In this document: piece by piece, positions 28,666-47,715 of the stretch | Position numbering within the stretch: the first letter of the stretch is position 1 | Layout: each line of letters starts with the position of its first letter | NCBI GenBank assembly: GCA_028291545.1 | Contig: JAQGHR010000040.1 | Coordinates: forward strand, 96,589-160,588 | Reading direction: 5' to 3' | DNA: 64,000 bases | From: Planctomycetota bacterium | Lineage (GTDB): Bacteria > Planctomycetota > Planctomycetia > Isosphaerales > Isosphaeraceae | The notes under the pieces: model-generated | The model's input: only the letters and a program-made list of their open reading frames with translations | Databases searched by the model: none | What the model was told of the DNA's origin: nothing | Translations under genes and position numbers: made by a program

Positions 28666-28736
28666 AGCGGGTAGCGGGAATCGAACCCGCATGTCTAGCT
28701 TGGGAAGCTAGCGCTCTACCACTGAGCTATACCCGC
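28666..28736 (-). tRNA. tRNA-Gly (anticodon CCC).
   Basis: Minus-strand cloverleaf GCGGGTA-TA-GCTC-AGTGGTA-GAGC-G-CTAGC-TTCCCAA-GCTAG-ACAT-GCGGG-TTCGATT-CCCGC-TACCCGC-T. Confidence 0.9.
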
Positions 28737-28867: not shown

Positions 28868-29257
28868 TGACCGGGGTGGGGCTCGAACCCACGACCAACG
28901 GATTAACGTACTGCATCGGCTTTCACCGACCGCCCGCATTGAGAAAATTCGGGGCGTTGCGAGTCTGGACTCTCCCATCGCCATCGCAGGCGTACCGCGT
29001 CGAGTCTCTGAGGCTGGGACCGACGATCCGTCGGACCCTTGCCTGCTGATTGCCCAATCCCCTGCCTTTTCAAACCGTCACGCTTGCCGTTACCAGCGAC
29101 GTTGTGGTGGCAGGGGCTCTGAGGGGGTCCCAGCAAATTGCGGCATTCTCATCTCGCGGTTCTGTGATCTTCCCGCGAGAGGCTCCTATTCTTGAGCTCG
29201 GCGCGATCGCCAAGCTCGGGTTGAAGTCCGTTGCTCTACCGACTGAGCTACCCGGTC
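28868..29257 (-). tRNA. tRNA-Lys (anticodon UUU) gene split by an intron. Exons are 29257-29224 and 28906-28868.
   Basis: The two halves join to a canonical 73-nt tRNA: acceptor GACCGGG/CCCGGTC, anticodon stem ACGGA/TCCGT, loop CTTTTAA, variable TGGTC, T arm GTGGG-TTCGAGC-CCCAC, discriminator A. Confidence 0.8.
28907..29223 (-). ncRNA. Group I-like (IC3-like) intron, 317 nt, inserted between positions 34 and 35 of tRNA-Lys(UUU). It has no ORF.
   Basis: The 5' exon ends in U and the intron ends in G. It contains AGAGACUCGACG (compare the Azoarcus IC3 core AGAGACUAGACGG, recalled from memory), the CCCCUGCC/GGCAGGGG helix, and the GAAA-capped hairpin UCGGU-GAAA-GCCGA near the 3' end. Confidence 0.7.
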
Positions 29258-47619: not shown

Positions 47620-47715
47620 GGGAGTGTGTGTTCGGCTGGTGCCGGCCCCGGTCTTCAAAACCGGTGAGGGGTCTGGAAACAGGCTCCTGGTGGGTTCGAT
47701 TCCCATACGCTCCCG
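47620..47715 (+). tRNA. selC: tRNA-Sec (anticodon UCA).
   Basis: 8-bp acceptor GGGAGUGU/ACGCUCCC + discriminator G. D arm UCGGC-UGGU-GCCGG (4-nt loop). Anticodon arm CCGGU-CUUCAAA-ACCGG. 8-bp extra arm GGGGUCUG-GAAA-CAGGCUCC. 5-bp T arm GUGGG-UUCGAUU-CCCAU. This is the bacterial 8/5 architecture. Confidence 0.85.

Follow-up and report, generated by a model that had tools for sequence, protein, structure and literature searches.

The window analyzed here, a stretch of 64,000 nucleotides (nt) of the planctomycete contig JAQGHR010000040.1, holds on its minus strand two pieces that together make up a tRNA-Lys(UUU) and that are separated by 317 nt. This raises the question whether the locus is a working tRNA gene whose transcript is freed of the insert by RNA splicing or the remains of a gene that was broken by it. 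The observations described below make it very likely that an Isosphaeraceae-like planctomycete has here a functional tRNA-Lys(UUU) gene, the transcript of which would carry between U34 and U35 a 317-nt group I intron of the Lys.3Ug type without open reading frame (ORF). The three parts of the gene are as follows:

29224..29257, minus strand: 5′ exon, tRNA nucleotides 1-34 (acceptor, D arm, 5′ anticodon stem, C32 U33 U34); seen in the sequence, by ARAGORN -i and in the call of the spliced product
28907..29223, minus strand: group I intron, 317 nt, without conserved ORF; from covariation, the match to the core model R1 (see below), the partial match to RF00028 and the identity to relatives
28868..28906, minus strand: 3′ exon, tRNA nucleotides 35-73 (U35 U36 A37 A38, 3′ anticodon stem, variable loop, T arm, acceptor, A73); seen in the sequence and by ARAGORN

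An earlier reading of this DNA made from its letters only (the sequence-only reading) had placed the two halves of one tRNA-Lys(UUU) at these positions, and both were found there exactly: the 5′ half GACCGGGTAGCTCAGTCGGTAGAGCAACGGACTT spans 34 nt (29257..29224) and the 3′ half TTAATCCGTTGGTCGTGGGTTCGAGCCCCACCCCGGTCA spans 39 nt (28906..28868). When joined, they give a 73-nt cloverleaf with the anticodon UUU and the discriminator A73, which ARAGORN calls tRNA-Lys(ttt). It also proved right that the insert follows a U (U34) and ends in a G (G317) directly before the 3′ exon. Among the matches listed in the genome scan described below, the 5′ half is identical in 26 related loci. In the 64-kb window, the interrupted gene is missed by both default ARAGORN and the Rfam tRNA model, which report tRNA-Gly(CCC) at 28736..28666 and tRNA-SeC at 47620..47715 and nothing else, and default ARAGORN finds no further tRNA-Lys in the window. 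The authors of tRNAscan-SE 2.0 state that their program was not designed for detecting such introns. A search with intron detection (ARAGORN -i), as the sequence-only reading had proposed, recovers the interrupted tRNA together with its 317-nt intron; the isotype that it assigns is a different one, since the junction is slid by one base (ggact-intron-gttaa) and the product is called tRNA-Asn(gtt).

For the insert itself, intron nucleotides are numbered 1-317 in the following (window coordinate = 29224 minus intron position). All paired regions (P1 to P9), with the joining regions (J) and loops (L) between them, could be assigned, including P1 and the guide sequence, which had been left unassigned before:

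29223..29226, minus strand: P1 5′ strand, exon C32-U33-U34 plus intron C1, with the 5′ splice site after 29224; from the sequence and the alignments
29194..29217, minus strand: P1a, hairpin of 10 base pairs (bp) in the P1 loop, intron 7-16/21-30; from the minimum-free-energy (MFE) fold, variable in length and sequence in alignment A1
29183..29186, minus strand: internal guide sequence, intron G38-G39-A40-G41, G39 wobbling with U34; an invariant GGAGCC directly 5′ of P2
29152..29180, minus strand: P2, intron 44-51/65-72, with the 13-nt A-rich loop GAAGAUCACAGAA; from the MFE fold
29140..29145, minus strand: P3 5′ strand UGCCGC, intron 79-84; 100% paired
29131..29135, minus strand: P4 5′ strand UGCUG, intron 89-93, after J3/4 AAU-U; placed by the RF00028 alignment
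29053..29125, minus strand: P5, intron 99-101/169-171, plus its 67-nt extension; from covariation and the MFE fold
within 29053..29125, minus strand: P5a, intron 108-115/158-165, 8 bp, CCCCUGCC/GGCAGGGG
within 29053..29125, minus strand: P5b, intron 116-118/148-150 and 122-124/142-144
within 29053..29125, minus strand: P5c, intron 127-130/135-138 (span 127-138), with the GNRA loop GUAA
29044..29048, minus strand: P4 3′ strand CAGCA, intron 176-180; from the RF00028 alignment
29012..29043, minus strand: P6 GGC/GCC, intron 181-183/210-212, plus the P6a hairpin 186-194/200-208; from covariation
29002..29008, minus strand: P7 5′ strand, G216, bulged A217, G218-A-C-U-C222, the putative guanosine-binding-site region; 100% paired
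28993..28998, minus strand: P3 3′ strand GCGGUA, intron 226-231; from covariation and the RF00028 alignment
28979..28992, minus strand: P8 CGCC/GGCG with a 6-nt loop, intron 232-235/242-245; 100% paired
28973..28978, minus strand: J8/7 AUGGGA, intron 246-251; from its position and the purine-rich match to AAGGGA/AAGAGA of classical tRNA introns
28967..28972, minus strand: P7 3′ strand GAGUCC, intron 252-257, forming a pseudoknot with 29002-29008; from covariation
28911..28963, minus strand: P9 domain with P9 (261-262, 264-266/309-313), the variable P9a (268-272/289-293) and P9b; from covariation
28916-28929, minus strand: P9b hairpin UCGGU-GAAA-GCCGA, intron 295-308 (295-299/304-308), with the GAAA tetraloop L9
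28907, minus strand: omega-G, intron nt 317, which closes the intron at the 3′ splice site; from the sequence

The structure derived from the window sequence was tested on alignment A1, which consists of 31 planctomycete-type sequences, and for the core helices only on alignment A3, which consists of 21 cross-phylum sequences. In A1, the 91 pairs are formed in 92.1% of the cells, compared to 33-41% after a shift of the 3′ partners by 1-3 columns. Changes on both sides occur in 41 of these pairs, and not one of the observed measures is attained in 500 shuffles. The corresponding values for A3 are 94.4% of the cells, compared to 32-45%, with double changes in 22 of 45 pairs and compensatory changes in P3, P7, P8, and P9b. 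Since one of the aligned sequences was the source of the structure, the share of paired cells favors the tested fold, an effect that does not touch the counts of double changes. P3, P5, P6, P7, and P8 are 92-100% paired and show changes on both sides, and the P3/P7 pseudoknot joins the P4-P6 and P3-P8 domains. No variation is seen in P4 or in the three pairs of P1 that involve the exon, which therefore neither support nor contradict the fold. The MFE fold of the intron alone, which by its nature cannot show the P7 pseudoknot, reproduces P1a, P2, P3, P4, P5-P5c, P6/P6a, and P9b (z = −3.6 compared to shuffles). A P3-P8 core, the absence of which had been named beforehand as refuting the intron, is thus present and backed by covariation, and the compensatory changes in the core helices require selection on the RNA fold.

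Looking at the single helices, the exon pairs C32-G41, U33-A40, and U34·G39 of P1 are invariant in all sequences of both alignments (31/31 and 21/21), and the fourth pair, C1-G38, changes to U-A or U·G in relatives. The guide occupies the same place as GUGCC in the Azoarcus intron and GAGCC in tRNA-Leu introns. The inner five pairs of P2 are 94-100% paired with compensatory changes (A1), its outer pairs being shifted by a bulge in most relatives, and five of the six pairs of P3 show double-sided changes across phyla (A3). Besides P5a to P5c, the P5 extension contains a conserved internal loop UCAGAG/AUU and an A-rich bulge UUGAAAA; compensatory changes were seen in seven of the eight P5a pairs as well as in P5, P5b, and P5c, with 96-100% of the arm paired (A1). 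P6 is 100% paired, and six of the nine P6a pairs change in a compensatory manner (A1). In P7, C222-G252 is replaced by A-U in 21 of the 31 sequences of A1, while in Rhodothermales a U-A pair becomes C-G and an A-U pair becomes G·U (A3). In P8, G-C becomes A-U in five planctomycete sequences, with further pair types across phyla, and all five pairs of P9b covary across phyla (A3), its GAAA loop being nearly invariant. At the putative guanosine-binding site, assigned by homology, G216, the bulged A217, and G218-C256 are invariant, and CAGAGACU and J8/7 A(U/A)G(G/A)GA are conserved. No extra helix is present between P7 and P3′ or between P2 and P3, meaning that P2.1 and P7.1/P7.2 are absent.

Set against this map, most structural details of the sequence-only reading stand. 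The core motif that it quoted, AGAGACUCGACG, lies at intron nt 215-226 and corresponds to J6/7-P7-J7/3, and the GAAA-capped, P9-like hairpin near the 3′ end is P9b/L9. The 8-bp helix suspected to be P4 does exist, its identity being P5a of the long P5 extension instead. The insert had also been described as free of ORFs; the sole mechanically predicted one, a TTG ORF of 77 aa (28903..29136, minus strand) inside the intron, is considered not to be coding since in this stretch relatives show indels whose lengths are not divisible by three.

As a second line of evidence, model R1 was used, which comprises the P3-to-P7′ cores (138 positions) of 12 non-Lys introns present in the seed alignment of a preprint (Williams, 2020; bioRxiv 10.1101/2020.01.27.920355), namely an Azoarcus-type Ile, three Leu, three Arg, an fMet, a Met, two Thr and a Ser intron. 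The R1 seed alignment (A2) was annotated with P3, P4, P5, P6, P6a, and P8. On both strands of the 64 kb, the sole match with E ≤ 10 is located at 28965-29109 on the minus strand, with 30.8 bits. Covariation and the R1 match thus agree with each other and with the group I identity proposed for the insert, the match to the Rfam group I family RF00028 being below threshold.

The arrangement is not restricted to this genome. In 185,579 species-representative genomes, a scan for 3′ halves of tRNA-Lys type with G plus a non-T base in front of them yielded at least 120 loci, and at no less than 72 of them the same interrupted gene could be reconstructed, with a 5′ exon ending in ACTT, an intron of about 200-380 nt and a 3′ exon starting with TTAATC. 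The search for homologous introns in relatives suggested earlier was thereby answered. These loci comprise at least 30 from Planctomycetota (Isosphaeraceae metagenome-assembled genomes (MAGs), Singulisphaera acidiphila DSM 18658, Tautonia sociabilis, and Paludisphaera), at least 2 of Isosphaeraceae type under other bin labels, at least 18 from Actinomycetota (Microbacterium, Agromyces, Arthrobacter, and Nesterenkonia), at least 10 from Alphaproteobacteria/Pseudomonadota, at least 7 from Rhodothermales/Bacteroidota, at least 2 each from Gemmatimonadaceae and Poribacteria, and at least 1 from Lachnospiraceae. With more than 70 independent genomes carrying the same interrupted gene, the arrangement is beyond chance. 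Four loci (L033, L075, L076, and L096) are cut by contig ends, three of which contain a group I core. The interrupted gene of the window, taken as exons plus intron, is 72-83% identical to 30 loci with an Isosphaeraceae-type tRNA body among the matches listed, the closest of these being L087 (83%), followed by L114, L045, and the one of Singulisphaera acidiphila (L034), which is situated at about 3,860,567-3,860,968 of NC_019892.1. Of the 120 listed loci, 44 were not counted as Lys.3Ug introns; among them are unusual uninterrupted tRNAs, tRNA-Asn 3′ fragments and attachment-site (att)-type repeats. R1 finds no clear group I core in these 44 loci, which include L099 and, with a weak 15.4 bits, L043 (Gemmataceae).

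A possible course of splicing can be drawn up by homology with the Azoarcus tRNA-Ile, cyanobacterial tRNA-Leu and Tetrahymena introns. In the folded pre-tRNA, C32-U33-U34 would pair with the guide GAG, and a free guanosine bound at G218-C256 beside the bulged A217 in P7 would attack the bond after U34. Subsequently, omega-G317 would occupy the guanosine site and the 3′-OH of U34 would attack the bond after G317. As P10 comprises only 2-3 bp, the exons would be held mainly by the tRNA body, which probably aligns the 3′ exon. Ligation would restore the loop CUUUUAA, which would then be modified as in other tRNA-Lys(UUU), and the mature tRNA would read AAA and AAG. The long P5 arm with its conserved internal loops, A-rich bulge and GNRA cap, together with the GAAA of L9, probably stabilizes the core by tertiary contacts.

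Several points weigh against the reading of the locus as a functional, spliced gene. The candidate P10 of at most 3 bp (intron U36-A37-G38 with U35-U36-A37), which was paired by eye, is weak and not conserved in relatives. The proposed tertiary contacts are guesses, as neither a GNRA tetraloop in L2 nor, in P5, the 11-nt receptor known from the Azoarcus intron is present. A promoter and terminator scan of the minus strand detected neither a sigma-70-like promoter nor an intrinsic terminator, the missing promoter being the point that counts here. Since the pattern used for the genome scan required a G, the conservation of omega-G in relatives is not independent evidence. Concerning R1, the E-value of the match (about 1.4e-6) rests on a rough calibration, and while the 3′ two-thirds of the alignment are correct, the 67-nt P5 insertion causes the P3 5′ strand to be placed wrongly, in the P5 arm. 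Finally, Rfam 15 yields no group I match at the gathering score in the whole window, nor any at E ≤ 10 on 901 nt, and a narrow search of 331 nt around the intron with RF00028 gives 20.6 bits (E 0.0034) compared to a gathering score of 50. The sequence-only reading had named the lack of a significant RF00028 hit as an outcome that would speak against an intron; at the gathering score this is indeed what was found, although the partial match, which covers model positions 48-158 (P3-P4-P5-P6-P7-P3′) only, aligns with the fold and agrees with the manual map. What keeps the score under the threshold is that the lineage of the intron is a divergent one, with 67 additional nt in P5, and as this lineage differs from the Rfam seed, the missing match at the gathering score is uninformative here. 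Further weak Rfam matches (hya, isrJ, Acido-1, and plastid untranslated region elements) were dismissed as chance or tRNA-like.

How far the lineage diverges can be seen from the R1 scores of the at least 72 related loci, which are bimodal. The canonical, IC3-like introns of Nesterenkonia, some Microbacterium, Alphaproteobacteria, Gemmatimonadaceae, and Lachnospiraceae reach 78-125 bits, whereas those of Planctomycetota, most Microbacteriaceae, Rhodothermales, and Poribacteria, including the window intron with its 30.8 bits, reach 16-51 bits. The low-scoring lineage is marked by J3/4 UAU/AUU, P4 UGCUG/CAGCA, a conserved UGAGAG/GAUU internal loop above P5, and UCAGAGACU in place of GUAGAGACU. 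Regarding the subgroup, the window intron shares with IC3 the presence of P2, the absence of P2.1 and P7.1/P7.2, a small size, and the GAAA of L9. It lacks the short P5 of this subgroup, carrying instead a covarying 67-nt P5a-c arm, and the CCUAAG/UAUGG receptor is absent; P5(a-d) is described as absent from IC3 (PMC11835236). Judged by its structure, the intron is a group I intron with an IC3-like overall layout and a P4-P5 region that is not IC3. A second weak R1 match (22.7 bits) was observed in an Isosphaeraceae MAG (L104:1237-1386, plus strand), about 5.5 kb away from its tRNA-Lys intron.

This divergence is what keeps alive the best-surviving alternative, according to which the intron is removed in vivo but not autonomously, requiring, like several group I introns, special conditions or a host protein (a chaperone or a maturase-like factor). 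The lineage differs from the classical self-splicing tRNA introns in its R1 scores, it is devoid of the Azoarcus-type L2 tetraloop and 11-nt receptor, and it carries a large additional P5 arm. On the other hand, the complete catalytic core is conserved, and neither a conserved intron ORF nor a conserved neighboring gene suggests a cofactor. Moreover, an A-rich bulge combined with a GNRA-capped P5 extension is a stabilizer of the RNA-only type, comparable to P5abc of Tetrahymena, which also counts against a protein requirement. Dependence on a helper is consequently regarded as improbable, and the intron itself is very probably functional.

Clearly less probable still is that the locus is a dead pseudogene, that is, a tRNA-Lys disrupted by a decayed, non-splicing group I intron or another insertion, with AAA being read by another copy. 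The sub-threshold Rfam score and the lacking promoter match would fit this view, as would the intron-less alleles found in relatives. A metagenome scan for the uninterrupted tRNA of Isosphaeraceae type, i.e., for the intron-less copies in relatives that the sequence-only reading had advised looking for, gave six contigs with the same body type (L121-L126), all of which are called tRNA-Lys(ttt). Four of these six genes exactly match the product that splicing is predicted to give at other interrupted loci in the set, and the flank of one of the six (L122) is 82.7% identical over 1141 nt to the flank of an intron-containing locus of a Paludisphaera MAG (L080). As the flanks match, L122 is the orthologous locus without intron. 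The six uninterrupted genes therefore fix the exon junction and show the intron to be polymorphic among relatives, and since such alleles exist, the intron is dispensable in principle. Against a pseudogene, however, stand the intactness of both exons, the 5′ half being shared with the 26 related loci mentioned above, and the compensatory changes that keep the core helices in the 31 planctomycete and 21 cross-phylum sequences. In addition, some genomes have, among the copies recovered, interrupted ones only: both Nesterenkonia alkaliphila (L056 and L115) and the MAG MFD01872.bin.2.91 (L060 and L113) possess two distinct tRNA-Lys(UUU) genes, each with a Lys.3Ug intron. A decayed gene is thus very unlikely.

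The remaining alternative, boundaries shifted by one base to the 5′ side with a tRNA-Asn(GUU) as product, rests on the ARAGORN -i output and has practically no probability, as the intron would then end in C instead of G and the invariant C-G/U-A/U·G P1 formed with the guide GAG would be broken, as the tRNA body has the discriminator A73 and a Lys-type variable loop, as all uninterrupted genes with the same body contain CUUUUAA and are called Lys(ttt), and as the Williams rule set (U at −1, omega-G, and isotype score) gives Lys.3Ug for the homologous seed.

With the reading as a functional tRNA-Lys(UUU) gene preferred over these alternatives, the locus can be compared to systems known so far. 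The sequence-only reading had taken tRNA-Lys to be an undescribed host, which has to be withdrawn: the preprint mentioned above, a purely computational work, already lists Lys.3Ug, Lys.4Ug, and Lys.2Ug introns in its seed alignment (entries Mle24.Lys.3Ug, Mpe6.Lys.4Ug, and Dba165.Lys.2Ug; Williams, 2020), and the Lys.3Ug seed is homologous to the window intron. Apart from the phylum table of the preprint, which the search did not cover, no peer-reviewed tRNA-Lys group I intron was found in the literature, and none in Planctomycetes. With a tRNA-Lys split after anticodon-loop nt 3, a U at −1 and a G at omega, the window intron is of the Lys.3Ug class. Judging by its seed entry, Mle24.Lys.3Ug shares with it the host tRNA and site (CUU/intron...g/UUAA), the U at −1 and omega-G, the P4-P5 signature UAUGCUGGGAC...CCCUGAGAG...GAUUGGG.AAUCAGCAGG, UCAGAGACU in J6/7-P7 and the GAAA of L9, and like the window intron it is known by bioinformatic prediction only. 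The window intron also aligns through all core helices with Microbacterium/Agromyces introns of the Mle24 seed type. The host of the seed, in contrast, is apparently a Microbacterium-type actinobacterium and not an Isosphaeraceae-like planctomycete, and the Microbacteriaceae-type homologs measure 247-262 nt compared to 317 nt. Features that set the window intron apart from the Mle24 type are the 10-bp hairpin within the loop of P1, an L2 of 13 nt where the Mle24 type has GAAA, a longer P5b/P5c and P6a, and the P9a hairpin.

Among the classical tRNA introns, the one of the Azoarcus sp. tRNA-Ile(CAU) (IC3; seed Aol6.Ile2.5Ug), which is about 205 nt long, also lies in the anticodon loop, has a 3-bp exon part of P1 and a guide directly 5′ of P2 (GUGCC compared to GAGCC in the window), and shows the same order of helices from P2 to P9. 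Both have in common AGAGACU(A/C)GACGG, J8/7 AAGG.A, the P7 strand UAGUCC/GAGUCC, and the GAAA of L9. They differ in that the Azoarcus intron is inserted after anticodon-loop nt 5 instead of nt 3 and has the P4 UCGGCG/CGCCGA, a J3/4 AAA, a P5 with the CCUAAG/UAUGG receptor and no extension, and an L2 GAAA. The cyanobacterial and plastid tRNA-Leu(UAA) intron (Leu.3Ug) resembles the window intron in being inserted between nt 34 and 35, in having U34 in the wobble pair, in an exon CUU that pairs with a G(A/G)G guide, in lacking an ORF, and in being anciently inherited within a clade, whereas it resides in another tRNA and has a canonical IC3 core without P5 extension.

The ORFs neighboring the tRNA in the window are typical planctomycete genes, encoding PSCyt2/PSD1 (DUF1549/DUF1553), DUF1501, PEP-CTERM, and MutS-like proteins. 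The PSCyt2/PSD1 gene aligns at 68-69% beside the tRNA in Tautonia (L058), Singulisphaera (L034), and an Isosphaeraceae MAG (L016). This synteny and the identity of the gene to its relatives point to a vertical inheritance of the intron within Isosphaeraceae. The tRNA-Gly(CCC) gene, which lies 131 nt downstream of tRNA-Lys on the same (minus) strand, is peculiar to this genome, and a conserved Lys-Gly operon was rejected since in 30 relatives the 600 nt downstream contain no tRNA. The other tRNA gene of the window, tRNA-SeC(TCA), is on the plus strand and scores 76.3 bits.

For the family as a whole, phages appear to be involved. IMG/VR was scanned with the same pattern and yielded 51 loci, in nine of which a phage-borne tRNA-Lys(UUU) is interrupted by a group I intron of the Lys.3Ug type. 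Two of these nine (L154 with 648 nt and L172 with 708 nt) belong to the lineage of the window intron and contain in the P6 loop an ORF matching the Pfam family PF11645 of PD-(D/E)XK endonucleases (E 2e-18 and 3e-17, respectively). This ORF probably encodes a homing endonuclease; a phmmer search with the one of L172 gave no significant match to PDB sequences. PF11645 was presumably built around I-Ssp6803I, the PD-(D/E)XK homing endonuclease of the Synechocystis tRNA-fMet intron, which the two phage introns thus resemble in carrying such an ORF, unlike the window intron, which has none. The phage copies with their endonuclease ORF suggest that the intron family spread by homing, with a subsequent loss of the ORF in chromosomal copies.

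Some further observations on tRNA-Lys loci were made in the course of the scans. In four Isosphaeraceae loci (L009, L025, L093, and L101), only the tRNA-Lys 3′ exon and the last 5-8 nt of the intron are present, without a group I core upstream, and the retained intron tail matches the full interrupted gene of the same genome (L025 compared to L103, and L101 compared to L098). In L025 a tyrosine-recombinase ORF ends 65 nt before the fragment, and L093 contains a DUF3987 protein. These fragments have the appearance of att repeats belonging to integrative elements for which the intron-containing tRNA-Lys gene is the target. The intron-less L122 has an integrase-like region downstream, which is similar to L025 and L098. 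In two Alphaproteobacteria/Pseudomonadota MAGs (L051 and L020), an extra intron-less 5′ half is located about 125-200 nt upstream of the interrupted gene and runs through CTTTTAA before it diverges, being possibly a remnant of rearrangement or integration. The contigs L010 ("Alphaproteobacteria bacterium RI_251") and L087 ("Terriglobia bacterium MFD04780.bin.2.4") carry an Isosphaeraceae-type tRNA-Lys body with intron and are probably mis-binned planctomycete DNA. A Roseivirga MAG (L027) contains two 3′ halves of tRNA-Asn type at a distance of 378 nt, both following ...gcacgtgcgggg, and upstream a tRNA-Asn 5′ half that ends in GACTG; R1 detected no group I core there. IMG/VR also contains hairpin-forming insertions between anticodon nt 34 and 35, of 29-32 nt in tRNA-Asn-like loci (L127, L134, L138, and L151) and of 50 nt in tRNA-Lys (L139 and L168). 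These viral insertions, for example CUG|ACAC...UUUAAG|UUAA, are far too short for a group I intron and might represent a mini-intron, a bulge-helix-bulge-like element or something else.

Taken together, the locus adds to a kind of intron already catalogued in a preprint, of a lineage that is divergent and widespread in bacteria. The general picture of bacterial tRNA group I introns, known since 1990 and extended to Lys in 2020, remains unchanged, and the value of the finding lies mainly in annotation and in a natural ribozyme variant rich in covariation, as the lineage provides a compact group I ribozyme with an unusual, strongly covarying P5 arm. It can tentatively be proposed, at somewhat less than even odds, that the introns of Planctomycetota, Microbacteriaceae, Rhodothermales, Poribacteria, and phages form a structurally distinct cross-phylum tRNA-Lys lineage, in which the UGAGAG/GAUU loop and the P5a-c arm replace the 11-nt receptor, which was spread by phages and PD-(D/E)XK endonucleases, and which is an obligatory route to the sole AAA-reading tRNA in families such as Isosphaeraceae. 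If this were true, the lineage would offer a new natural scaffold for structural work on ribozymes and would uncover a systematic hole in tRNA annotation. As default finders and the Rfam threshold miss the gene, Isosphaeraceae and many Microbacteriaceae, Rhodothermales, and Alphaproteobacteria will seem to be without tRNA-Lys(UUU) wherever no intron-aware tools are used. With intron-less orthologous alleles, ORF-bearing phage copies, and integrases that appear to use the intron-containing gene as an attachment site, the family is also well suited for following how an intron is gained, lost and spread horizontally. Where no UUU copy other than the interrupted one exists, the decoding of AAA would depend on an active ribozyme.

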